NCBI RefSeq assembly: GCF_001945605.1
Contig: NZ_MPKA01000066.1
Coordinates: 1 to 22,588, forward strand
DNA from: Dubosiella newyorkensis
Lineage (GTDB): Bacteria > Bacillota_I > Bacilli_A > Erysipelotrichales > Erysipelotrichaceae
DNA: 22,588 nucleotides
Reading direction: 5' to 3'
Shown here: piece after piece, positions 1,506 through 22,588 of the stretch
Numbering within the stretch: position 1 is the first letter of the stretch
How the letters are laid out: every line of letters starts with the position of its first letter
Program-made: the position numbers and the translations under genes
The notes under the pieces: model-generated
Databases searched by the model: none
What the model was told of the DNA's origin: nothing
What the model saw: the letters and a program-made list of their open reading frames with translations, nothing else

Positions 1506-1535
1506 AAAAAGATATCCGCGCGGATATCTTTTTTT
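1506..1535. terminator. bidirectional rho-independent terminator shared by the convergent msmK and isomerase operons
   Basis: Perfect 18-nt palindrome GATATCCGCGCGGATATC (1511-1528), flanked by an A5 run on the left and a T7 run on the right. Confidence 0.85.
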
Positions 1536-3264
1536 ATGCTTTTGGTTTTCGCACATAGGCGCGAATGACACCGATCGTTTTGTTCGTATTGTTGACGATC
1601 TTATAGTTTTTCACACTGGCTGGCACGATAAATGTTTCGGCATAGTGGACTTCGAACGGTTCAAAAGATCCATCCATGCTTTCGATCAGACAGCTTTGGC
1701 CCTCGATCAAATTGAGCATGTTCACATTGTCTTCGTTTTTGATAAGCACATCATCTTGGATCCAATAGCGTCTTGTTTCTATATATTCCAATTCATGAAG
1801 GCCTGTATGCTCTTCTTTGACATGCTCGTCTTCTTTGAGTGTATAGATCGCGTTGACAAGGTTCTTTTCGACCCAATGTGTTGTTCGATCCCATTGAATG
1901 TTTTTCTTTCCATGCTCGATATGGACTGGGCGTGGTTTTCCATCTAGTCCTACGCGCGCCCAATCCCAAAGCTTGAATGTAAAACAATACGGGGTGGCGC
2001 TGATTTCTAGGACCATCGCGTCTTTTCCAGAACAATGCGTCGTTCCTGCCGGGATCAAAAAGTGATCATGCTTTTTGGCTGGGAATTTATTGACATATTT
2101 TTCCGCGTCAAAAAGGATCTCTCCTCGATTGGCCGCTTCAAGGTCGGAAATCATTTCTTCAGGAACGACGCCTTCTTTCAAGCCAAGGTAGACACACGCG
2201 CCCTCTTTGGCATCAAGAATATAGTAGCTTTCATCTTGGGTATAGGCCATCCCGAACGTTCGATGAATGTATTCGGTGAGCGGATGGACTTGGAGCGAAA
2301 GATTTTGTCCGCCAATCGTATCAAGAAAGTCGAATCGGATCGGGAATTCAGCCCCAAAACGAGAATATACGCTCTTTCCTAAAAGGGCTTTTGGCTGATC
2401 GAGCACGAGATCCATGGCAGGCAGTTCGATATATCCATTTCCAAAATCGAGATAGATTGAATTTTCTTCAGGGACACCATCAAAACTCCAAGCGTAGTTT
2501 TCTTTGTCCGGGTCCAAGTTGCAGGCGCTCTTCATCCATTGTCCGCCCCAAACGCCTGGATCAAAATAAGGCACGAGCCGGAAAGGACGATGAGCCATTT
2601 GGATCAAGCCGTCTCGAACCGCTTTTCCAGACACCATTTTTATTTCGTTCATATCGTTGGTGTCGATGAAGTAATCGATTCGATCAAAGAACGTGCGTTT
2701 ATATTTGTCGGCGACACGCCATTCGATAAAGAAACCGCGCTTGATCTTTCTTAATGCGTCTTCGTCTTGGTTGTCGGCTAAAAAGTTGGGCATTCCTTGA
2801 CGATAGCGAAGGGTGATTTCCCAACGCGCTAAATCCAAATAGACAAGGAGTCCTTGGGCGATCAAATTGGCTCCGTAGCCATAGACAATGACTTTTTTTC
2901 CTTCTTGTCTAGCTTTCTGGGCTTGTTCTTGGAGCGCTTTTTTCTTGTCTTCCACGATGAAATTTTCGATTTCTCCATAATACATGCGTCCAAACACTCG
3001 ATCGTCGGTGATATGGTATTTTAATTGTTCATAGATCGTTTCTTGATCTTTGAACAGCTCGATCGCGTCGATCCATACATCGTGGGGGATCTTTTTGAGT
3101 TCGTGTTTTATTTCTTCATCATATACGCCTGGATACGTATCGATGACGAGGATGTCTTCCATCTTTTCTTGCAGTTGGGCAAGGATCGATTCCCAACCTT
3201 GGATAAGCTCTCCTTGGTGGCCTTCGATTTTTGTTTTTGGATATGGATCATATAAACTAGTCAT
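1534..3264 (-). CDS. class I mannose-6-phosphate isomerase family protein, long (~576 aa) form with an N-terminal extension domain
   Basis: 576-aa ORF with RBS AGGAGAAG upstream. It has a type I PMI-like zinc or catalytic motif LSLQVHP and IPAGTTHCSG...VLEISATP in the C-terminal two thirds. Its start overlaps the upstream cupin gene stop by 8 nt. Confidence 0.65.
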   Translation of the reverse strand: MTSLYDPYPKTKIEGHQGELIQGWESILAQLQEKMEDILVIDTYPGVYDEEIKHELKKIPHDVWIDAIELFKDQETIYEQLKYHITDDRVFGRMYYGEIENFIVEDKKKALQEQAQKARQEGKKVIVYGYGANLIAQGLLVYLDLARWEITLRYRQGMPNFLADNQDEDALRKIKRGFFIEWRVADKYKRTFFDRIDYFIDTNDMNEIKMVSGKAVRDGLIQMAHRPFRLVPYFDPGVWGGQWMKSACNLDPDKENYAWSFDGVPEENSIYLDFGNGYIELPAMDLVLDQPKALLGKSVYSRFGAEFPIRFDFLDTIGGQNLSLQVHPLTEYIHRTFGMAYTQDESYYILDAKEGACVYLGLKEGVVPEEMISDLEAANRGEILFDAEKYVNKFPAKKHDHFLIPAGTTHCSGKDAMVLEISATPYCFTFKLWDWARVGLDGKPRPVHIEHGKKNIQWDRTTHWVEKNLVNAIYTLKEDEHVKEEHTGLHELEYIETRRYWIQDDVLIKNEDNVNMLNLIEGQSCLIESMDGSFEPFEVHYAETFIVPASVKNYKIVNNTNKTIGVIRAYVRKPKA

Positions 3265-3814
3265 TTTTTCTTCTCCTAACGATTACTTCTCCATTTTCTT
3301 TATAGACCCGATACGGAAACGGGTGCTCTTCGATTCGTGCATAATCGTGTCCTGCGTTGGCAGGCCACACACAAATCACTTCAAGATCTTCGTTTCCAGT
3401 ATTGATGAGCCGGTGGGCGTGATGTCCATGAATATGATGAAGCGTGCCGACATGCATTTTTTCGCTCCAGCAATTTCCTTGCTCATCCATCAGCATCAAC
3501 AAACCTTCGCCTTTCGCACACCAATAGTATTCTTCGCAAGACAGATCATGATGGAAATGTCCTCGTGTCATATTGCATTCGCCATCGACCAAGACAGGAT
3601 GCAGCAAAGAAACGCCCCAATTGAGATGGCCAGCCGCTCCTTCAGGATCTAAAAAGGAAGTGACTTCGTACATACACGTATCGTTGGGCAATGTCGGATC
3701 GTAGGCTGCGTAAAAATCTTTCGCGTCTTGATAGAGTTTGATGGATTTCTGCATTTCCTTTCCGCACATTCCTTTTTCAAAGTCGTGAAACAAGGAAGAT
3801 TCGATGATGTTCAT
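3257..3814 (-). CDS. cupin-type (archaeal-type) glucose-6-phosphate isomerase, cPGI
   Basis: 185-aa ORF with RBS AAGGAGGG. The cupin metal motif TRGHFH...EEYYWCAKGEG...HGHHAHRLINTG and the tail WPANAGHDYARIEE...ENGEVIV align, from memory, block by block with Pyrococcus furiosus PGI (TKGHFH...EVYVALKGKG...PPYWAHRTVNIG...YPADAGHDYGTIAE...ENGEVKV). Confidence 0.85.
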   Translation of the reverse strand: MNIIESSLFHDFEKGMCGKEMQKSIKLYQDAKDFYAAYDPTLPNDTCMYEVTSFLDPEGAAGHLNWGVSLLHPVLVDGECNMTRGHFHHDLSCEEYYWCAKGEGLLMLMDEQGNCWSEKMHVGTLHHIHGHHAHRLINTGNEDLEVICVWPANAGHDYARIEEHPFPYRVYKENGEVIVRRRKND

Positions 3815-3851: not shown

Positions 3852-3880
3852 ATTATAGGAGTCAAAAAAAAATCCGTCAA
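3852..3880 (-). promoter_or_regulatory. sigma-A type promoter of the cPGI-PMI operon
   Basis: On the minus strand: TTGACG (3880-3875), a 17-nt spacer, then TATAAT (3857-3852). It lies about 38 nt upstream of the ATG at 3814. The -35 element overlaps the stop codon and terminator of the upstream methyltransferase gene. Confidence 0.55.
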
Positions 3881-3896
3881 CTCTTTTTGGCGGATT
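3864..3896 (-). terminator. probable rho-independent terminator of the rpoN/methyltransferase transcript
   Basis: On the minus strand the stem is AATCCG (3896-3891) with CGGATT (3876-3871). The loop is about 14 nt and contains the stop codon, and a T9 run follows (3872-3864). The stem is short, so confidence is moderate. Confidence 0.45.
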
Positions 3897-4413
3897 TGCG
3901 TTTTTCAATCAAAAAAAGATATGGACTATCTTTCTTTAAATAATTTGTGATTTTCTGGATCCCGTATTGACGCGGATCAAGCGTTTTTAAAAAGCGTTCA
4001 ATTTCTTGTTGTTCTAGAGGACTGTTTTCATGCGCGTATAGGACAAGGGAAAGTCGTCCTTTTGGCTTGAGTCTTTGGATTGTTTTTTGGATCGCCTCGA
4101 TGCTAGAGCTCGCTTGCGTCGTGATCGAAGGATCAAGTCCTGGACAATAGCCAAAGTTGAAAATCGCCGCGTCTAAAGGCTCTTTGATATATCGATCGAG
4201 ATGAGCATGCGAATCCAAGATCCAAACAAGAGAAGATGGAATCGTCTTAGGTTTTAATTCGGGCTGGATTTCAAAAGCGTAGATCTTCTTGACGGGCTGG
4301 TCTAGAAAAAACCGGGTATCGGATCCATTGCCATACGTTCCATCGAGCACGATCGCTTGTTTATGCATCGCTTCTTGTAAAAAAGCGTGCGAAAGTTCGA
4401 CCATTGTTTTCAT
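3877..4413 (-). CDS. mnmM: class I SAM-dependent methyltransferase of the MnmM/YtqB family (tRNA mnm5s2U34 methyltransferase-like)
   Basis: 178-aa ORF. The SAM motif VLDGTYGNGSDTRFF, IYAFEIQ and FNFGYCPGLDPSITT parallel the B. subtilis YtqB blocks (IDATMGNGHDT, VYAFDIQ, FNLGYLPGGDKSITT), recalled from memory. Confidence 0.72.
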   Translation of the reverse strand: MKTMVELSHAFLQEAMHKQAIVLDGTYGNGSDTRFFLDQPVKKIYAFEIQPELKPKTIPSSLVWILDSHAHLDRYIKEPLDAAIFNFGYCPGLDPSITTQASSSIEAIQKTIQRLKPKGRLSLVLYAHENSPLEQQEIERFLKTLDPRQYGIQKITNYLKKDSPYLFLIEKRKSAKKS

Positions 4414-4506
4414 TTATATTCCTCTGCCTAGAAATAGAATACACCAAAAAATAAATTTCATTCAATAAAACTCTGAATAATTCAATCCCGTATAAAAATC
4501 AGGTCA

Positions 4507-5703
4507 CTATTTTCTTCTCTTAGATGCACTCTCAATTCCCAAGATCTTTCTATATTTATTAATAGCTCTTCTTGAAACATACAATCCTAACTCTTCCAAT
4601 TGATCACATAGCTGCTGATCACTGAATGGTTTATGTGGATCTTCTTGTTCGATCAACGTTTGAATCGCCTTCAAGATGGAATCTTGACTCGTCCCGCCTT
4701 TTGTCTTTGAAACAAACAATCCTTTGATAGGATAAATATTCCCTTCAAATTGATAATACTTGTTGGAAAGTGTTCGAGATACCGTTGATTCATGAAATCC
4801 GCTCTTCTGTGCTATATCTTGTAAAGTACATGGTTCAAGTTCATCGTGAAACAAAAAATGATTTTTCTGGATCGAAATAATCTCATTCGCTAAAATGAGG
4901 AGCGTACGATTGCGTTTATTCATCGCATCCATAAAGAAATGGGCTTCTTGAAAATAAGATTTAAGATTTTTATTCTCTTTTGGGATGTTGAGAATTTGGA
5001 GTTGTCCTTGTTGAATTGGTTCTATGTAAACATCTGCCCCTTCGACATGGATCGTAAAATCAGGAATCAGTATTTCTTCTTTTTCAGTTGCCTCCTGCAA
5101 ATTCGGATAAAGAGAGCAAGCACGAATTTTATCTAATGCTTCTTCAATTTCTTTTAGCGTTGCCCCCTCTCTTCTTGCAATTTCTTTCCAAGAAAGCAGT
5201 TCTTTTCCTTGCCCATATTTTTTTAATAGATGAGATGCGAACGTTTCTTTCTTTCGATCAAGCTGTAGAATGATACACTCGCTTTGATTCCGAGCGGCTA
5301 TTCCTGCTGGATCTAGAGATTGAACTTGTTTGAGGGATCCTTTCCATCTATCTTCTGAGCAATTAAGGTAAGCTATGCTTTCTTCTTCTGAATCCATAAA
5401 CATTCCTTTTTCATTTAATGTTTCTATAATAAAACTACAGATCGTTGGATCGAATGTTTCTTCATTCGTATTCAACTGCCGATATAAGTCTTCTTTCCAA
5501 GAAACTGGCGCCGCAAATCCTTCTTCGATCCACTCATTGAGATCTTTACTTTGATGATATTCAATAAACGGATTTTGTTCACAAAGCTCTTTGATCGCAT
5601 CCTGCAATTGGGCTTCACTCATTCTTAAAACTTCTAAAGAACGTTGTTGAGAAAGCGACAATTGTTGAGTCTGTGTCTGTTTTTGAATCATTTTTTGGTG
5701 CAT
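4507..5703 (-). CDS. rpoN: RNA polymerase sigma-54 factor (RpoN/SigL), a short 398-aa form
   Basis: The Gln-rich region I reads MIQKQTQTQQLSLSQQRSLEVL. The C-terminal HTH is HESTVSRTLSNKY and the RpoN box is SRRAINKYRKILGI. RBS AAAGGAG lies 7 nt upstream. Confidence 0.92.
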   Translation of the reverse strand: MHQKMIQKQTQTQQLSLSQQRSLEVLRMSEAQLQDAIKELCEQNPFIEYHQSKDLNEWIEEGFAAPVSWKEDLYRQLNTNEETFDPTICSFIIETLNEKGMFMDSEEESIAYLNCSEDRWKGSLKQVQSLDPAGIAARNQSECIILQLDRKKETFASHLLKKYGQGKELLSWKEIARREGATLKEIEEALDKIRACSLYPNLQEATEKEEILIPDFTIHVEGADVYIEPIQQGQLQILNIPKENKNLKSYFQEAHFFMDAMNKRNRTLLILANEIISIQKNHFLFHDELEPCTLQDIAQKSGFHESTVSRTLSNKYYQFEGNIYPIKGLFVSKTKGGTSQDSILKAIQTLIEQEDPHKPFSDQQLCDQLEELGLYVSRRAINKYRKILGIESASKRRK

Positions 5704-5728
5704 AAAGATCTCCTTTCAATCTTATACT

Positions 5729-5744
5729 AGCAAGATTTGTGCCA
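5729..5744 (-). promoter_or_regulatory. sigma-54 (-24/-12) promoter immediately upstream of rpoN itself
   Basis: The minus strand reads TTGGCAC-AAATC-TTGCT-AGTATAAGATTGAAAGGAGATCTTTATG. GG is at 5743/5742 and GC at 5731/5730, with canonical TGGCAC-N5-TTGC spacing. It shares the extended TTGCTnGTATA....TGAA pattern with the two PTS promoters. The predicted TSS is near 5718, just ahead of the RBS. Confidence 0.7.
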
Positions 5745-5768
5745 ACTTTTTTAACCCTTTTTCTAAGT

Positions 5769-5797
5769 TTGACATCTATTTTTATTGCTTCTATACT
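5769..5797 (+). promoter_or_regulatory. sigma-A type promoter of the LevR-like activator gene
   Basis: Consensus TTGACA (5769-5774), a 17-nt spacer, then TATACT (5792-5797). RBS AGGTGA (5804-5809) and ATG 5815 follow directly, so the leader is very short. Confidence 0.65.
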
Positions 5798-5814
5798 CGA
5801 TTTAGGTGATTCAA

Positions 5815-8508
5815 ATGAAAGATACTTTATATAAAATGATCCACGCTTGGACAAGCGCAGAACGATTCGATGAGTTGACCATCGCTTCTCTTTCAAGTGC
5901 TTTATCGCTTCCAAAAAATAAAATTACGTTTTTTATGCAAGATCTGATCAAAGATGGAAAAATAGTCCGCATCGAAGAAAAGCCTCTTCGTTTTATGAGC
6001 AAAAAAGCACTGGAAGAACTATATGGAACGCCCGTTAATACGGATAAGATCCCTAGATTCGACGCTTGGCTAGCTTCTGTTCAAAAAGAACCAATGGATT
6101 TCGAAAAATTAGTCGGTTATGATGGCTCACTTGCTAGTTTAGTTGAACAATGTAAGGCGACGATCTCGTACCCACCTAGCGGTCTTCCCCTGATGCTAAC
6201 AGGAGAAACAGGAACAGGAAAAAGCTTTATCGCTCAATTGACATTTGAATACGCTAAGAATCATTCACTTTTAAAACCAGAAGGTCGTTTCGTTTCCATT
6301 AATTGTTCTGAATACGCAAATAACCCAGAATTATTAAGCGCCAATTTGTTTGGCTATGTTAAAGGAGCTTTTACAGGAGCCAATCAAGATACACCAGGAT
6401 TATTAGAACTGGCTGATGGAGGCGTTCTTTTTTTAGACGAAGTCCATAATTTAAAGGGGGAATGCCAAGAAAAGCTATTTCAATTTATGGATCAAGCCCT
6501 ATATCATCGAATGGGAGACAACAAAACTTGGTATTCTTCCCAAGTTCGTCTGATTTTTGCCACCACAGAAGATCCCAATCAAGTTCTTTTAAAAACATTA
6601 CAACGCCGTATCCCAATGCATTTAAAAGTCCCCACTCTTCTACAACGGGGATCTTTAGAAAAAATTCAAATGATCTATATGCTTTTCAAAAAGGAAGAAC
6701 AACGCCTTAAAAAGCGAATCAAGCTTTCACCTAGCTTCTTTCAATTGTTGCTTTCCTATCCATTTCCTGAAAATATTGGAGGATTAAAAAGCACGATCCA
6801 AGCATGCTGTGTGCAAGCCCTTTTTCAAATCGACGAAAAGGACGAAATGATGATCGAAGCTCATAATCTTCCTGCCACTATTCTAGAACATGCCTCGATC
6901 GATACGCTTTTGAAAATTCAAGACAGCGATTGGATTTATATTGATGAACTGGATCGTAATTTTAAAAATGAATATTCCACCACATTGCTTGAACAAAATG
7001 CGATTCATAAGCTTGCACAAACTGAGGATTTTCGAGAAGATGCACTTCATATCGCGAACGCTCTTTTCCAATCTTCAAATTCAAATAAGGCGAGCGCTTT
7101 CGAAAATGCCGCATTCACTTTGGTCGAAAAAATCACTCAGCACTATCATATGGCTGTCCTTAAACAAGAGAGTGATTCATTTCAGCATCAGCTTTTGTCG
7201 ATCCTTTCTTTACCGTTAAAGACTCGAATAGCACTAGAAAACAAAAAGCAAGAAATGGAAACGATCTTAGGACGTTTCAAAAACGAAGATTTCCGGATCT
7301 ATTCAGCTGTTTTAGAAATCCAAGAAACTTTAAAAAATACCCTCAATATTTCTATGGAGCCTATCCAAAATGTGTTACTAGGCCTTCTGTTTTTAAAAAC
7401 CTTCCCCACTCAAAGCATTCCAAAACGAATGGGGATTTTATTAGCGCATGGCCCTTCGAGTGCGAGCTCGATCGCAATTTGTGTAAATGAGTGGCTCGAA
7501 CAACATGTATTCGATGCGATCGATATGCCATACTTCATGTCGCAAGAACAATGTATAGAACAGCTCAATACCTATCTAAAAAAGATGGAAGGCATCGAAG
7601 AATTGTTTCTGCTCGTCGATCTTGGCTCTTTAGAAGAAGTTTGGAAAGGATTAAAGATCAAAAACGTCAATATTGGCATTATCAATACGCTTCATTTAAA
7701 GATGGCTCTTTCCATTGGCCAAGATCTCCTGAGTTCTAAAAGCATGGAAGATATCTTAGAAAAAGCAAAACAAGAAACGCGCGCTTCCTATCGGATCGAA
7801 TACAATAGGGAAAAGAAAAAATTGATCATCTGTTCTTGCGCGAGCGGAATGGGCGTAGCGGAAAAATTAAAAAGCGTAATTGTTGATTCTTTACCGAGCG
7901 AAAGCTCGATTGAAGTGCTCTCCTATGATTACAACTCTTTGCTTCAAAATGGAATCCATAATCCGAACTTTGAAAACTATGAAGTCTTGTGTGTCGTCGG
8001 CACTTTAAATCCAAATATTAAACACTTACATTTTATCGCCTTGGACGATTTGATTTTGCAAGAAAGCAATAACAGCCTCGATCAATATTTAGAGCCTTAT
8101 TTTTCAAACACAAAATTAGAAGAATTCAAGAAAAACATTATTAAGAATTTTTCGCTTTCCAATATCATGAATGCTTTAACAATTTTAAATCCTACAAAAT
8201 TGCTTGAACATGTCGCGGATGCGATCGACCGGCTCCAGAAAGAAATGCATCTTTCGTTGAGCAACAATACTTGTTTTGGTTTATATGTACATGTGAGTTG
8301 TTTAGTAGAGCGTCTTGTTATGAATCGAGGGATCGAATCATATCAAGATATCGGAGGTTTTCAAACCGAACAGAAAAACTTCATAGAACGAGTCAAGCGT
8401 TCCTTCAGCGATGTAGAAGCTTTTTATGGTGTTCAAATCCCTGTCGAAGAAATCGGATATATGTTCGATTACGTAAAAAACGATAAAAATTATCAAAAGT
8501 GTGTCTAA
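5815..8508 (+). CDS. levR: sigma-54-dependent, PTS-controlled transcriptional activator of the LevR family (HTH, AAA+, PRD, EIIA-Man-like, EIIB-Gat-like, PRD)
   Basis: The ORF-track model starts at GTG 5806. I prefer ATG 5815, which sits 5 nt after AGGTGA. Residues are numbered from the 5806 model. Walker A is GETGTGKS (133-140), the sigma-54 contact loop is GAFTGA (187-192) and Walker B is VLFLDE. The EIIA-Man-like domain has LLAHGPSS (His548), the EIIB-like domain has CSCASGMG (Cys678) and the C-terminal PRD motif is YVHVSCLVERL (His829). Confidence 0.9.
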   Translation: MKDTLYKMIHAWTSAERFDELTIASLSSALSLPKNKITFFMQDLIKDGKIVRIEEKPLRFMSKKALEELYGTPVNTDKIPRFDAWLASVQKEPMDFEKLVGYDGSLASLVEQCKATISYPPSGLPLMLTGETGTGKSFIAQLTFEYAKNHSLLKPEGRFVSINCSEYANNPELLSANLFGYVKGAFTGANQDTPGLLELADGGVLFLDEVHNLKGECQEKLFQFMDQALYHRMGDNKTWYSSQVRLIFATTEDPNQVLLKTLQRRIPMHLKVPTLLQRGSLEKIQMIYMLFKKEEQRLKKRIKLSPSFFQLLLSYPFPENIGGLKSTIQACCVQALFQIDEKDEMMIEAHNLPATILEHASIDTLLKIQDSDWIYIDELDRNFKNEYSTTLLEQNAIHKLAQTEDFREDALHIANALFQSSNSNKASAFENAAFTLVEKITQHYHMAVLKQESDSFQHQLLSILSLPLKTRIALENKKQEMETILGRFKNEDFRIYSAVLEIQETLKNTLNISMEPIQNVLLGLLFLKTFPTQSIPKRMGILLAHGPSSASSIAICVNEWLEQHVFDAIDMPYFMSQEQCIEQLNTYLKKMEGIEELFLLVDLGSLEEVWKGLKIKNVNIGIINTLHLKMALSIGQDLLSSKSMEDILEKAKQETRASYRIEYNREKKKLIICSCASGMGVAEKLKSVIVDSLPSESSIEVLSYDYNSLLQNGIHNPNFENYEVLCVVGTLNPNIKHLHFIALDDLILQESNNSLDQYLEPYFSNTKLEEFKKNIIKNFSLSNIMNALTILNPTKLLEHVADAIDRLQKEMHLSLSNNTCFGLYVHVSCLVERLVMNRGIESYQDIGGFQTEQKNFIERVKRSFSDVEAFYGVQIPVEEIGYMFDYVKNDKNYQKCV

Positions 8509-8510
8509 AT

Positions 8511-8526
8511 TGGCACACTTTTTGCT
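8511..8526 (+). promoter_or_regulatory. sigma-54 (-24/-12) promoter, distal copy (P1), starting 3 nt after the levR-like stop codon
   Basis: TGGCAC (8511-8516), ACTTT, TTGCT (8522-8526), with canonical spacing. Confidence 0.62.
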
Positions 8527-8583
8527 TGTATAGAAGTGAAGCGAATTCCAATACAAAAAAATATAAATCATAAACTCATTAGT

Positions 8584-8599
8584 TGGCACGCTTCTTGCT
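8584..8599 (+). promoter_or_regulatory. sigma-54 (-24/-12) promoter, proximal copy (P2) of the PTS operon
   Basis: TGGCAC (8584-8589), GCTTC, TTGCT (8595-8599). The predicted TSS is near 8610, followed by RBS AAAGGAGG (8623-8630) and ATG 8636. Confidence 0.75.
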
Positions 8600-8635
8600 T
8601 GTATAGAAATGAATAATTTAAAGAAAGGAGGTTCT

Positions 8636-9064
8636 ATGCGGCATATTATTTTAGCTTCTCATGGCGACTTTTCAAAAGGTCTGAAGCATTCTGTGCAGAT
8701 GATTGTTGGCGATATTGCCGACCAATTGCAAACATATTCGCTCTATCCGTCTTATAATCCTCGCGATTATATGGAAGAAATGAGTGCTCTCATCCAAAAG
8801 AACCCTGAGGACGAATATGTTTTTCTTTGTGATATTGAAGGTGGGAGTGTACATAGCGCGCTTTCTACATTGTGTCAATTCCCAAATGTTCTTGTATTTG
8901 GGGGAACAAATATGAATCTCGTGCTCGATTTACTATTATCGACACCAGAAATACTTATTAACAATCCTGATGTCCAAAATCGGTTGATCGCTTCCGGAAA
9001 AAATGGCGTAAGCTTAACGGATCAAAAAAGGATCCAACAAAAAAGCGAAGAAGAAGATTTCTAA
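8636..9064 (+). CDS. PTS mannose/fructose/sorbose-family EIIA component
   Basis: I take the start at MRHIILASHGDF because of the strong RBS. The track start at 8609 would lie inside the promoter. The phosphorylatable His is in the ASHG motif and a DIEGGS motif is present. The protein is about 142 aa. Confidence 0.85.
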   Translation: MRHIILASHGDFSKGLKHSVQMIVGDIADQLQTYSLYPSYNPRDYMEEMSALIQKNPEDEYVFLCDIEGGSVHSALSTLCQFPNVLVFGGTNMNLVLDLLLSTPEILINNPDVQNRLIASGKNGVSLTDQKRIQQKSEEEDF

Positions 9065-9079
9065 AGAAGGAGGAAAAAT

Positions 9080-9550
9080 ATGATTAAAAAACTTAGAGTC
9101 GATCATCGACTACTGCATGGACAAGTTGCTTTTTCGTGGACGAGCGCTCTGAATGCTGATTGCATTTTGATTGCCAACGATTCAGTCGTGAACGACGAAC
9201 TTCGAAAAACTACGATGAAAATGGCTAAACCAAATGGAGTGAAGCTTGTAATCAAAAATATTGCCGACAGCATTCAAGCGATCAACAGCGGCAAAACTGA
9301 CAAATATAAATTATTTATTGTGGTGGAGAGCATCAAAGACGCTCAGAAACTTATCAACGGCGTGGATCAAATCAAAAGTTTGAATCTAGGTGGTACAAAA
9401 GCAACTGAACAAACTCGCAACATTTCAAAAGCAATGAATATCACAAATGAAGAAGAGACGATTCTTAAAGATCTTGTGAATAAAGGTGTAGATGTAACGA
9501 TCCAAATGGTCCCTGAAGACACAGCCATTCCTGTAGAAAAGGTTTTATAA
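9080..9550 (+). CDS. PTS mannose/fructose/sorbose-family EIIB component
   Basis: The N-terminal RVDHRLLHGQVA motif matches the RIDxRLIHGQ phospho-His signature. RBS is GAAGGAGG. 156 aa. Confidence 0.9.
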   Translation: MIKKLRVDHRLLHGQVAFSWTSALNADCILIANDSVVNDELRKTTMKMAKPNGVKLVIKNIADSIQAINSGKTDKYKLFIVVESIKDAQKLINGVDQIKSLNLGGTKATEQTRNISKAMNITNEEETILKDLVNKGVDVTIQMVPEDTAIPVEKVL

Positions 9551-9559
9551 GGTGAGAGT

Positions 9560-10345
9560 ATGTTAATTCAATCAATTTTACTTGGCCTAGTGGCAATGCT
9601 TGGAAATGCCGAATATCTTTTAGGAACTTGTTTGCTTTCTCGCCCTATGATCATGGGCTTATTTACTGGAATTGTAATGGGAAACATTGAAATGGGCGTG
9701 AAGATCGGAGCAACGATGGAACTTGCTTTCATGGGTGCTTTCTCGATCGGGGCTAGTATTCCTCCAGAAATGATTTCTGGAACAGTGCTGGGCACCGCTT
9801 TTGCGATTACTACTGGATCTGGTGCTGAAACAGCCCTTGCGATCGGTCTTCCTGTCGCTTCGCTTGTTCTCTTGGCAAAAAACTTCGGCATGGTCTTCAT
9901 CTTGCCTCCATTTGTTCATAAAGCGGATGAATACGCAAGCAAAGATAATATGCAAGGTGTTGCCCTTGTTCATTATCTCGCCGGATTCTTTGGTGTCAAC
10001 TTGATTATTGGTCTTTGTGTAGGAATTGGCTATTATATGGGATCTCCAGCGATTGAAGCTTTCTTGTCGATCATTCCTGAATGGATCTCTAAAGGACTTG
10101 AAATCACGATGGGCTTACTTCCTGCAATCGGTTTTGGTTTGTTAATGAAAATGATCATGAATAAATCAAATATTTGCTTCTTTATTTTAGGATTTGGACT
10201 TTCTGTCTATTTGAATTTGCCTGGTACTGGAATTGCTGTTTTCGGAGCGATCATAGCGATCGTATTGACACAAATCAAGCGTTCTCAACAATTACAACCA
10301 GCAATGAATGTGGAAGGAGGATTAGATGATGACGACGACTTCTAA
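9560..10345 (+). CDS. PTS mannose/fructose/sorbose-family EIIC membrane component
   Basis: 261-aa polytopic hydrophobic protein in the canonical position after EIIB. It has an acidic C-terminal tail, GGLDDDDDF. Confidence 0.88.
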   Translation: MLIQSILLGLVAMLGNAEYLLGTCLLSRPMIMGLFTGIVMGNIEMGVKIGATMELAFMGAFSIGASIPPEMISGTVLGTAFAITTGSGAETALAIGLPVASLVLLAKNFGMVFILPPFVHKADEYASKDNMQGVALVHYLAGFFGVNLIIGLCVGIGYYMGSPAIEAFLSIIPEWISKGLEITMGLLPAIGFGLLMKMIMNKSNICFFILGFGLSVYLNLPGTGIAVFGAIIAIVLTQIKRSQQLQPAMNVEGGLDDDDDF

Positions 10346-11147
10346 AAAACTTGAAAGAAAACAAATTATGTCTGTATTCTGGCGCTCGTTCGGATTGGAA
10401 TGGGATTGGAACTATGAGCGACAGATGAATATTGGATATTGCTACTGCATGTTGCCGGTTATCAAAAAGTTATACCCAGACCCTGCGCAACAAGAAGCAG
10501 CTATGAAACGACATTTAGAATTCTTCAATACAACACCTCAGCTCGCTACCTTGATTCTTGGTATCACAGCCGCTATGGAAGAGCAAAACGCGAACGATCC
10601 TGGCTTCGATACACAATCGATTAATGATGTCAAAGTTTCTTTAATGGGACCTCTTGCAGGTATTGGTGACTCGTTTATTTGGGGAACTCTCCGTATCATT
10701 GCGACTGGTGTTGGTTTATCTCTTGCAACACAAGGTAATGTTCTTGGTCCTATCTTATTTTTCTTGATCTTTAATATTCCTGCTCAAGGTCTTCGCTACT
10801 ATTTAATGAATGCCGGTTATAAATTAGGAAGCGGTTTTTTAGCACAACTTCAAAAAAGTGGTTGGATGGAAATGTTGACATATGGTGCTTCTGTTCTGGG
10901 ATTGATTGTAATTGGAGGAATGACTGCACAAAATGTCGCGATCAATATTCCGCTTGTCATCGGTGCTGGTGAAGAAGCGACAACGATCGGAGATATTTGT
11001 AATCAAATCATGCCAGGTATTCTGCCATTGCTGTTTACATTCGCAATCTATTATGTGTTGAAATTTAAAAATGTCAAAACAACAACTTTATTGATCGTAT
11101 TTATCTTGATTGGTTTTATTGGTGCTTATTTTGGAATTTTAGGATAG
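10326..11147 (+). CDS. PTS mannose/fructose/sorbose-family EIID membrane component
   Basis: The N-terminal motif FWRSFGLEWDWNYERQMN is characteristic of IID (RS..LQ.SWNYERMQ). The gene overlaps the EIIC 3' end by 20 nt, and its RBS GGAGGA lies inside EIIC. Confidence 0.9.
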   Translation: MMTTTSKKLERKQIMSVFWRSFGLEWDWNYERQMNIGYCYCMLPVIKKLYPDPAQQEAAMKRHLEFFNTTPQLATLILGITAAMEEQNANDPGFDTQSINDVKVSLMGPLAGIGDSFIWGTLRIIATGVGLSLATQGNVLGPILFFLIFNIPAQGLRYYLMNAGYKLGSGFLAQLQKSGWMEMLTYGASVLGLIVIGGMTAQNVAINIPLVIGAGEEATTIGDICNQIMPGILPLLFTFAIYYVLKFKNVKTTTLLIVFILIGFIGAYFGILG

Positions 11148-11166
11148 ATAAAAGGAGGAAAATACT

Positions 11167-12162
11167 ATGATGAAATTCAATGAAAAGGAAAAAGTGGAAA
11201 GTGTACAAGGAGCTTTAGCTCTACGTCCAGAAATCGAATCGATTGTTGATGGGATTTGCAAAGACGGGTACAAAAATATCGTTTGGCTTGGTATTGGAGG
11301 AACGTGGGCAAGCTCACAACAAGCAACTGTACATATGAAAGAACGGTCGGGTATCGAAACTTGGGCAGAAAATGCAGCTGAATATCTCACAACAGGAAAT
11401 AAAAGAATCGGAAAAGGAAGCATTGTAATCACTTCTTCAGTAACTGGAAATACGATCGAAGTCGTTGAAGCAGTCAAAAAAGCCAAAGAAGCAGGTGCTA
11501 CAGTAATCGGATTCATTGATGCGCCTGAAGCTGAACTCGCTAAAATGGTCGATCATGTCATTTCATATAAGCAAAATGAGCAATTAAAATTCTTTATGGT
11601 AGCTGATCGTTTCATGAAAAATGCTGGTGAATTCGATGACTATGAAGAAATGTATGCAGAATTTGATCAATATTTGCCACAAGCGCTTGTAGAAGTAGAA
11701 AAAGCAGCAGAACCTTTCGCAGCAGAATTCGCAAAGCAGCATTGGAACGATGATATTCACTACTTTGTTGGTGCAGGAAATCAGTGGGGTGCTACTTACT
11801 CTTATGCGATGTGCTATTGGGAAGAGCAACTTTGGATCAAAACAAAGTCAATCACATCCCCAGAATTTTTCCATGGAATGTTTGAAATCGTGACAAAAGA
11901 AACTCCAGTAACCGTTTATATCGGCGAAGATAAGCAACGTCCGCTTTCTGAACGTGTAGCGAACTTCTTGCCTAGAATTTGCGGCAACTATACGATCATC
12001 GACACGAAAGACTATGAACTAAAAGGGATCAGCGAAAAATATCGTGGAGATATCTCTCATCTAGTCATGCACGCAGTCAACAACAGAATCGATGTTCATA
12101 TGGAAGATGAAACAAAACACCCAATGGAGATCCGTCGATATTATAGAGCTCTTGATTACTAG
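11167..12162 (+). CDS. SIS-domain protein, FrlB/GfrF-like fructosamine-6-phosphate deglycase family
   Basis: 331 aa. SIS motifs are present (VWLGIGGTW...SSVTGNT) together with an EFFHGMFE motif. The C-terminal tail EIRRYYRALDY resembles the E. coli FrlB tail (ERRYYGGLVEY), recalled from memory. RBS is AAAGGAGG. Confidence 0.72.
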   Translation: MMKFNEKEKVESVQGALALRPEIESIVDGICKDGYKNIVWLGIGGTWASSQQATVHMKERSGIETWAENAAEYLTTGNKRIGKGSIVITSSVTGNTIEVVEAVKKAKEAGATVIGFIDAPEAELAKMVDHVISYKQNEQLKFFMVADRFMKNAGEFDDYEEMYAEFDQYLPQALVEVEKAAEPFAAEFAKQHWNDDIHYFVGAGNQWGATYSYAMCYWEEQLWIKTKSITSPEFFHGMFEIVTKETPVTVYIGEDKQRPLSERVANFLPRICGNYTIIDTKDYELKGISEKYRGDISHLVMHAVNNRIDVHMEDETKHPMEIRRYYRALDY

Positions 12163-12170
12163 GAGAATAA

Positions 12171-13238
12171 ATGGATATGACGATGGAAGATTATATTCAA
12201 CAAAGTCGAGCTGCTTGTGAACAATTGCTTCACGATCATAACTTGCTTGAGCCTGTTGTTGAACTTTATCAAAAACAAAAGCCTGAAACGATTTGGCTAG
12301 TGGCTTCAGGCTCCAGTTATAATGCTTGTGTTTGCGCACAAGCGTTGATGAATCAGTGGATGGATACAGATGTGGAAGTTCGTACCCCATTCACCTTCCT
12401 TCATTATACACCGTCTTTAAAAAAGAATGATTTGATCTTCGTGATCACACAAAGTGGCTTATCGACCAACGCGATCGAAGTGCTCGATGCTTTACAAGGA
12501 AACCAAAATGTAATTTGCTTGACCGGAAACAAAAACAGCGACGTGAAAGATCATACGGAAATAGTTCTCGAATATGGTGTGGGTGAAGAACTTGTAGGAT
12601 ATGTGACAAAAGGCGTTAGTGTATTGACCTTTTATTTGATTTGTTTCGCTAAACAAGTAACGAATAAAGAAAACATTGACCTGCTTAAAGTATTATCTAC
12701 ATTCGAATATACACAAACAGAAACAGAACAATTTATTAGGAAACATTTCAAATCTCTTTCTGGAATGCAAACCGTATATTGTCTAGGAACGCCTTATTCA
12801 CAAGGGGTGGGCTTAGAAGCTGCCTTAAAAATCGGAGAAACGATCCATGTGCCAAGCTTCTACTATGAAGTTGAAGAATTTATTCATGGACCTAACCTTC
12901 AACTGAAGCCAACCTATACGCTCTTCTTTTTTGATAGCAACGATAGAGCCTCCTCTCGTCTTCATCAAATTTATGAAAGCGCGAAGCTCGTAAGCGATCA
13001 TGTCTATTTGGTTACGATGGATCCTGCTTTTAAAGAGGATGCTCACGCTCTTGTGATCGAACCAGCCGTCGACCCGCTCTTCAGCTCGTTTGTAGAATTA
13101 CCATTTCCGCAACTGATTAGCGCAAAGATCAGCACGATCTTACATAGCACAATGCAGCATCCTCTACTAAAAGAATTTAAAAAAGGAGCTGCCGCAAAAA
13201 CTGAAAACTTCATCAATTACGATAACGATGAGGCATAA
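12171..13238 (+). CDS. second SIS-domain sugar-phosphate isomerase or deglycase (GlmS isomerase-domain, AgaS or GfrE-like)
   Basis: 355 aa. It carries WLVASGSSYNA, ITQSGLSTN and EFIHGP motifs typical of tandem-SIS aminosugar-phosphate enzymes. It is clearly divergent from the first SIS gene. Confidence 0.7.
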   Translation: MDMTMEDYIQQSRAACEQLLHDHNLLEPVVELYQKQKPETIWLVASGSSYNACVCAQALMNQWMDTDVEVRTPFTFLHYTPSLKKNDLIFVITQSGLSTNAIEVLDALQGNQNVICLTGNKNSDVKDHTEIVLEYGVGEELVGYVTKGVSVLTFYLICFAKQVTNKENIDLLKVLSTFEYTQTETEQFIRKHFKSLSGMQTVYCLGTPYSQGVGLEAALKIGETIHVPSFYYEVEEFIHGPNLQLKPTYTLFFFDSNDRASSRLHQIYESAKLVSDHVYLVTMDPAFKEDAHALVIEPAVDPLFSSFVELPFPQLISAKISTILHSTMQHPLLKEFKKGAAAKTENFINYDNDEA

Positions 13239-22399: not shown

Positions 22400-22503
22400 C
22401 AATTGATTATTTATGGTTTCGATCGATCCCTCAAAACCGGAAAAATCTTTCAGACACAACTCTTTCGTCTGTTTCAAGTCATGGCGTCCTCTCTTCTCTT
22501 TTC

Positions 22504-22588
22504 TGATCAAGTCCTCGGCCTATTAGTACCGGTCCACTCCGGACATCGCTGCCCTTCCATTCCCGGCCTATCCACCTTGTCGTCTTCA
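22504..22588 (-). rRNA. rrl: 23S rRNA, 3'-terminal ~85 nt (partial, continues beyond the window)
   Basis: The reverse complement reads TGAAGACGACAAGGTGGATAGGCCGGGAATGGAAGGGCAGCGATGTCCGGAGTGGACCGGTACTAATAGGCCGAGGACTTGATCA. This matches the conserved 23S 3' end (E. coli ...TGAAGACGACGACGTTGATAGGCCGGGTGTGTAAGCGCAGCGATGCG...ACCGGTACTAATGAACCGTGAGGCTTAACCTT), recalled from memory. Confidence 0.8.

Follow-up and report, generated by a model that had tools for sequence, protein, structure and literature searches.

Our analysis of the rpoN locus of Dubosiella newyorkensis, a bacterium of the mouse gut, suggests that sigma-54 probably boosts its own production in this organism. The sigma-54 gene is preceded by a -24/-12 element which, judged by its recurrence at one position and on one strand among relatives, is real and maintained by selection. 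We regard it as moderately probable that the element is a true sigma-54-dependent promoter which puts rpoN into its own regulon, to be induced whenever an activator protein (bEBP) is active, with basal sigma-54 being supplied from an overlapping sigma-A motif.

The rpoN locus and its -24/-12 element

In the window, i.e., the whole stretch of 22,588 nucleotides of D. newyorkensis DNA that was analysed, a sigma-54 possessing all three domains and a bEBP bearing the GAFTGA motif are encoded side by side (Table 1). The bEBP exhibits a Walker A motif (GETGTGKS) at position 130 and GAFTGA at position 184, and the PTS/SIS operon that follows is of the gfr-like fructosamine/amino-sugar type, as listed for clostridial GfrR (PMC6615313); its two tandem sigma-54 promoters are 73 nt apart. 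The strong sigma-A promoter TTGACA-N17-TATACT, which a sequence-only reading of this DNA had described as being aimed at the activator gene, was found as claimed. Two further features of the surroundings may be recorded here: (i) a 576-aa ORF at 1534-3814 (-), for which Pfam yields no domain and NCBIfam only a weak ManA-like stretch, overlaps a cupin/GPI-like ORF, and the pair is also located near the cassette in loci L023 and L035 (63% and 48-54% identity); (ii) the 3' end of a 23S rRNA gene, 22503-22588 (-), runs past the edge of the window.

Table 1. Features of the rpoN-bEBP-PTS locus, with coordinates counted from the first nucleotide of the window.
Feature	Coordinates	Strand	Basis or remark
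Intrinsic terminator ending the rpoN-mnmM unit	3862..3897	-	Hairpin + U9, after mnmM
mnmM (tRNA mnm5s2U34 methyltransferase)	3877..4413	-	NCBIfam MnmM, 146 bits vs cut-off 135
rpoN (sigma-54), 398 aa	4507..5703	-	Pfam AID, CBD and DBD domains; RpoN box RRAINKYR; 100% identical to D. newyorkensis RpoN
rpoN RBS AAAGGAG	5710..5716	-	Sequence
Predicted rpoN transcription start	5717..5720	-	~12 nt past C of GC, from -24/-12 geometry; inside (G/T)TGAA box
Extended -10-like sigma-A motif TGcTAGTAT overlapping the -12 box	5724..5732	-	Putative basal promoter or competition site
Sigma-54 promoter of rpoN	5730..5745	-	TTGGCAC (-24 box, 5739-5745)-AAATC-TTGC (-12 box, 5730-5733); exact consensus
Divergent sigma-A promoter of the bEBP gene, TTGACA-17-TATACT	5769..5797	+	11/12 match
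LevR/GfrR/DagR-like PRD-containing bEBP, 897 aa	5815..8508	+	Sigma54_activat and PRD domains; best NCBIfam match DagR
Distal sigma-54 promoter of the PTS operon	8511..8525	+	Exact match; directly 3' of the bEBP stop codon
Proximal, duplicated sigma-54 promoter of the PTS operon	8584..8598	+	Exact match
PTS operon: man-family EIIA, EIIB, EIIC, EIID and two SIS-domain sugar-phosphate enzymes (gfr-like)	8637..13238	+	Pfam, NCBIfam

The 111-nt intergenic region ahead of rpoN (5704-5814) reads, on the minus strand, ...AAAAAAGTTGGCACAAATCTTGCTAGTATAAGATTGAAAGGAGATCTTTATG, and, around the element, TTGGCACAAATCTTGCTAGTATAAGATTGAAAGGAGATCTTTATG. The element represents an exact match to TGGCAC-N5-TTGC at 5730-5744 (-), composed of TGGCAC at 5739-5744 and TTGC at 5730-5733, in which the GG and GC dinucleotides are one helical turn apart. 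The C of the GC dinucleotide is located 26 nt upstream of the rpoN ATG (5703-5701), the element points toward rpoN, and the predicted +1 (~5717-5720) lies directly upstream of the RBS AAAGGAG. The canonical -24/-12 element that had been claimed 26 nt before the start codon is thus borne out in sequence, placement and orientation.

Exact matches to this motif are rare: the 22.6-kb window contains three on both strands taken together, compared with 0.03 expected, and a count of three was attained in 0/100 shuffles. All three are intergenic and flank the bEBP gene, one before rpoN and two in tandem before the PTS operon, and they have TTGGCAC-N5-TTGCT(T/A)GTATA in common. When up to two mismatches are allowed, the window yields 19 matches vs 15 expected, which is background level, and hence only the exact sites are meaningful. 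Since mismatched matches occur at background frequency, the one-mismatch sites at 9790-9804 and 10222-10236 (+), inside the EIIC gene, are probably due to chance. An Rfam scan identified no RNA element near the rpoN-bEBP locus.

The proposal that the downstream mnmM gene rides on the rpoN transcript stands in part. The identity of MnmM holds, no terminator was found in the 93-nt gap between rpoN and mnmM, and a hairpin followed by U9 is located 3' of mnmM, which makes co-transcription of mnmM with rpoN plausible in D. newyorkensis. However, while strains of D. newyorkensis exhibit this linkage, all other species examined lack it. Hence, mnmM is ruled out as a conserved passenger of the rpoN transcript, and its position appears as a species-specific accident of gene order which is incidental to the regulatory design.

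Conservation of the element among relatives

One genome per species was scanned with an alignment of RpoN, which returned 80 loci, and -24/-12 elements with at most one mismatch were sought in the 300 nt ahead of rpoN, the chance expectation being estimated from shuffles. The gene order of rpoN, divergent LevR/GfrR-like activator, EIIBCD and SIS is kept in 27 loci of the Erysipelotrichaceae type. In 11 of these 27 the element is present on the rpoN strand, always 38-49 nt upstream of the rpoN ATG, and on the opposite strand it is present in none (0/27), with 0.04 loci expected by chance. It is this fixed position and strand that lead us to consider the element real and under selection. The sequence-only reading had held that its claim would fail if the motif were not conserved in relatives; conservation in orthologous intergenic regions is thus borne out. 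The positive loci are those of Erysipelotrichaceae OPF54, Dubosiella muris, Faecalibaculum, [Eubacterium] hominis, two Breznakia species, strain MTC7, Longicatena caecimuris, Clostridiaceae OM02-2AC and two uncultured genomes; 16 of the 27 syntenic species are devoid of a -24/-12 element at rpoN. Across the genera that carry it, RpoN identity amounts to only 32-47%, and the remaining intergenic sequence of the positive syntenic loci has diverged, except for the activator's own sigma-A promoter, the GTCAA and GAGTATA blocks of which are conserved in 12 sigma-54-positive intergenic regions. Outside this group, ~50 loci from Clostridia and Listeria contain a single comparable match, at another distance.

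In a rough neighbor-joining tree of RpoN, basal branches, as well as the Dubosiella/Faecalibaculum and Breznakia/[E.] hominis groups, exhibit the positive state, and the element is missing from the Holdemanella/Faecalitalea/Floccifex clade, Solobacterium, Ileibacterium and Stoquefichus. This distribution fits an ancient origin of the element followed by several later losses.

The PTS promoters are distributed more widely, since a consensus sigma-54 promoter is located directly after the activator stop codon in every syntenic locus that reaches this region. Their copy number varies, with two copies in L001, L002, L008, L011 and L013 and four, ~100 nt apart, in Faecalibaculum (L003, 2648-2951 (-)), and no tandem-repeat unit was found between the copies. 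More than one copy is seen only in species in which rpoN, too, has a sigma-54 promoter.

Strains of D. newyorkensis differ at one of the 111 intergenic positions. This identity is uninformative as to selection on the promoter, because the flanks are likewise 99-100% identical and the divergence of rpoN is mosaic. For rpoN itself (4507-5703 of the window vs L081, L083 and L085 at 4001-5197), DNA identity is 91.6-95%, with dS of 0.17-0.32 and dN/dS of ~0.13, with divergent tracts located between nt 100 and 1000, the breakpoints of which differ per strain, while the flanking genes are 99-100% identical. Within this species, rpoN thus looks like a mosaic hot spot of repeated recombination imports.

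Putative sigma-A sequences at the promoter and alternative readings

Comparison of the rpoN and PTS promoters of the syntenic loci reveals that both possess TTGCT and, exactly 10 nt past TTGC, a (G/T)TGAA box, which in the window is found at 5715-5719 (-), 8536-8540 (+) and 8609-8613 (+), that is, around the expected +1. These shared features argue for firing of the rpoN element in the manner of the PTS promoters, beyond mere docking of the holoenzyme. The two classes differ in that (i) TGGCAT, the clostridial consensus (PMC6615313), is present in 9/12 rpoN promoters, whereas almost all PTS promoters exhibit TGGCAC, and (ii) TTGCT is followed by A in 10/12 rpoN promoters and by T in most PTS promoters. 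Conservation of the PTS promoters also covers -11 to -5 (TTGTATA), an unusual feature, as sequence specificity is not normally ascribed to these positions.

Owing to the A that follows TTGCT, nine of the 12 rpoN promoters fit, in register with the -12 box, the extended -10 pattern TGNTANNNT (TGnTAnnnT), to which none of the 28 PTS promoters conforms, and a perfect TGCTATAAT is found in five species (L004, L006, L008, L011, L013). In the PTS promoters, the last base of the -10-like hexamer is A, which is poorly tolerated by sigma-A at this place. In the window the motif reads TGCTAGTAT, its hexamer TAGTAT being weak (4/6), and in the strain variants of D. newyorkensis it reads TGCTAATAT, with the hexamer TAATAT; in L002, L003 and L023 the -24/-12 element is present and the in-register -10-like motif absent. 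Transcription by sigma-A from this motif would start no more than 1-2 nt away from the sigma-54 start. A separate -35/-10 sigma-A promoter for rpoN was considered and rejected, as the minus strand of the intergenic region contains no two-hexamer promoter better than 9/12. The statement of the sequence-only reading that rpoN lacks a same-strand sigma-A promoter is therefore correct for -35/-10 pairs, but has to be amended in view of the extended -10-like sequence that overlaps the -12 box and is perfect in five relatives. This overlap suggests a hybrid promoter giving basal sigma-A transcription, at which rpoN might possibly also be self-repressed by occlusion; it would resolve the bootstrap problem of a sigma-54-dependent sigma-54 gene and, at the same time, opens a reading as negative autoregulation.

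Species devoid of the -24/-12 element exhibit TATAAT-type promoters ahead of rpoN instead, which indicates that the two solutions are alternatives. In four relatives without a sigma-54 promoter (L010, L021, L024, L025; ~5950-5980), TATAAT is located 6-7 nt before the rpoN ATG and a Shine-Dalgarno sequence is missing, which suggests that their rpoN mRNAs are leaderless.

According to the mechanism that we favour, (i) sigma-54 holoenzyme would bind to the -24/-12 element of rpoN as a closed complex, (ii) an active bEBP, most likely the adjacent PTS-controlled one, would open this complex, and rpoN (here along with mnmM) would be transcribed from ~5717-5720, (iii) sigma-54 would rise along with its target PTS operon, which amounts to activator-gated positive autoregulation, and (iv) a basal, sigma-54-independent supply would be provided by the extended -10-like motif (TGcTAGTAT in the window) from nearly the same start nucleotide. 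Against this mechanism speak the 16 syntenic species that do without the element, the TGGCAT of most rpoN promoters in place of the TGGCAC of the PTS promoters (although TGGCAT is the clostridial consensus), and the overlapping -10-like motif, which would also permit an exclusively repressive role. That rpoN constitutes a bistable switch, as had also been proposed, is pure speculation.

The weakest link in this mechanism is the assignment of the adjacent LevR-like protein as the activator, because no shared enhancer was identified and three bEBPs are listed for a close relative, Faecalibaculum rodentium (supplement of PMC12316311). In the window and 10 relatives, the 220-260 nt ahead of the rpoN promoter were compared with those ahead of the PTS promoter for the best 10-mers and 16-mers in common, either orientation being allowed; nothing consistent in sequence or position emerged from these 11 genomes, and enumeration of palindromes upstream of the PTS promoters of 19 species yielded none shared with the rpoN region. 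The only recurrent palindrome, AATCG-N10-CGATT, is located at 8451-8470 (+) of the window (AATCGGATATATGTTCGATT), 41 nt upstream of the distal PTS promoter, and exact copies are found 30-109 nt upstream of a PTS promoter in L001, L002, L004 and L011. As it lies within conserved C-terminal codons of the activator (EIGYMFDY) and has no copy near rpoN, we refrained from calling it a common UAS; it may represent the enhancer or a mere coincidence. The nearest upstream region of a PTS promoter is ~2.7 kb away from the rpoN promoter, whereas a UAS for a bEBP would be expected ~80-250 bp upstream.

We would call it possible, if rather doubtful, that the sole rpoN of an Erysipelotrichaceae lineage is driven by a fully hybrid promoter, in which TTGC-TATAAT/TAGTAT serves both as -12 box and as extended -10 with the same start: sigma-A would then provide basal transcription, idle sigma-54 would occlude it, and the PTS-gated bEBP would fire. 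The TATAAT-only, apparently leaderless rpoN of the sister clade would be the end-point reached after loss of the -24 box. If true, this would imply homeostatic self-repression by the idle holoenzyme and self-amplification once the bEBP is active. Such a promoter combines our favoured mechanism with the two alternatives of occlusion and of another bEBP considered below; these three are not mutually exclusive.

Autorepression by occlusion would mean that sigma-A transcribes rpoN from the overlapping extended -10 and is blocked by inactive sigma-54 holoenzyme docked at the -24/-12 element, so that sigma-54 is held at a set level with no activator involved. We consider this unlikely, even though it accords with the in-register TGNTANNNT being present in rpoN (9/12) and absent from PTS promoters (0/28), with the perfect TGCTATAAT of five species, and with the fact that k-mer and palindrome searches yielded no enhancer. 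In E. coli, sigma-70 promoters are repressed by sigma-54 holoenzyme at overlapping sites, in vivo as well as in vitro (PMC4551910), rpoN of R. leguminosarum is known to be negatively autoregulated (PMC3538637), and a -24/-12 element overlapping a sigma-70-type -10, of the kind that may be present here, is found at R. leguminosarum rpoN and at E. coli argT, chaC, mdfA and patA (PMC4551910, PMC3538637). However, the hexamer in the window is weak and is not accompanied by a -35, three species (L002, L003, L023) keep the -24/-12 element without the in-register motif, and the (G/T)TGAA box found at +1 of the activated PTS promoters is also present in the rpoN promoter, where a mere docking site would not need it. 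In contrast to the occlusion systems, the Dubosiella site is a full-consensus promoter with the downstream features of an activated promoter, the sigma-A element being a putative one.

It appears quite improbable that the rpoN promoter is functional and sigma-54-dependent but fired by another bEBP, in which case the loop would be gated by a signal other than the PTS substrate. The failure of our searches to reveal a common enhancer and the three bEBPs of the related F. rodentium would be in line with this possibility; yet rpoN adjoins this bEBP in every species carrying the element, the rpoN and PTS promoter classes are alike from -24 to +5, and bEBP genes usually adjoin their targets (PMC6615313). 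Finally, we give hardly any credence to a non-functional relic, i.e., a PTS promoter copy that reached the rpoN leader by duplication and leaves rpoN expression unaffected: PTS promoters are present in 2-4 copies in the same species, so that promoter copies do spread at this locus, but conservation at a fixed position across genera with diverged RpoN and diverged surroundings contradicts a neutral relic.

Relation to known systems and biological implications

Activator-gated positive autoregulation, the mechanism favoured here, has a counterpart in prxS-rpoN2 of Rhizobium etli and Mesorhizobium loti, where a sigma-54 gene is likewise located behind a -24/-12 promoter, a bEBP (NifA) is required, and sigma-54 amplifies sigma-54 when induced (PMC3538637); for Dubosiella this is a prediction. 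The systems differ in that (i) the activator is NifA in rhizobia and, as a candidate, the adjoining PTS-controlled LevR-type protein in Dubosiella, (ii) a NifA UAS can be recognised at the rhizobial promoter and another gene precedes rpoN2 in the operon, whereas in Dubosiella no UAS was found and the promoter is located directly before rpoN, and (iii) the rhizobial rpoN2 loop is started by a second, constitutive rpoN1 along with a weak internal promoter (PMC3538637), whereas Dubosiella apparently possesses one rpoN, no second D. newyorkensis RpoN family being present among the best 120 RpoN matches listed.

The idea of a sigma-54 promoter driving sigL in Firmicutes, of which the sequence-only reading knew no example, has been put forward before. 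Apart from the rhizobial precedent, a 2025 PSSM survey (PLoS One) already predicts such promoters: for Bacilli, Clostridia and Erysipelotrichia, it reports an enrichment of rpoN (COG1508) in the set of genes predicted to have a sigma-54 promoter, 'implying autoregulation' (PMC12316311). The survey thus draws the same inference for the same bacterial class, but it does so as class-level enrichment, from 11 Erysipelotrichia genomes that do not include Dubosiella, and contains no locus anatomy, conservation analysis or experiment (PMC12316311). Our literature search revealed no paper dealing with sigma-54 in Dubosiella and no experimental case of a sigma-54-driven rpoN in Firmicutes, and autoregulation of sigL is mentioned neither in the Clostridiales regulon reconstruction nor in Francke 2011 or ProPr54. 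A sigma-54-driven sigma-54 gene is already known; what may be new is the apparent overlap of sigma-A and sigma-54 promoters in a self-contained cassette.

In the LevR/GfrR systems of B. subtilis, Salmonella and clostridia, the sigma-54 gene is unlinked and is expressed independently of sigma-54, whereas in Dubosiella rpoN is physically part of the cassette and has the same type of promoter as the PTS operon. In other respects the locus resembles B. subtilis LevR/levDEFG-sacC, Salmonella GfrR/gfrABCDEF and clostridial GfrR, in which a PRD-containing bEBP likewise adjoins a mannose-family PTS operon that is driven by sigma-54 and contains SIS deglycase-like genes (PMC6615313).

The Dubosiella rpoN cassette is small and genetically tractable and would give the Firmicutes their first experimental case, and its promoter represents a natural test bed for the competition of sigma-A and sigma-54 at one start site. 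In the usual view, sigma-54 is constitutively present and regulation is placed on the activators. A conserved sigma-54 promoter on rpoN, within a compact sigma-activator-target cassette, would instead make the level of the sigma factor a regulated variable in gut Firmicutes, which could sharpen or delay the induction of the fructosamine/amino-sugar PTS. Mannose-family PTS are receptors for class IIa bacteriocins and some phages, and the sigma-54 loop might therefore also affect the sensitivity of these bacteria to such bacteriocins and phages.
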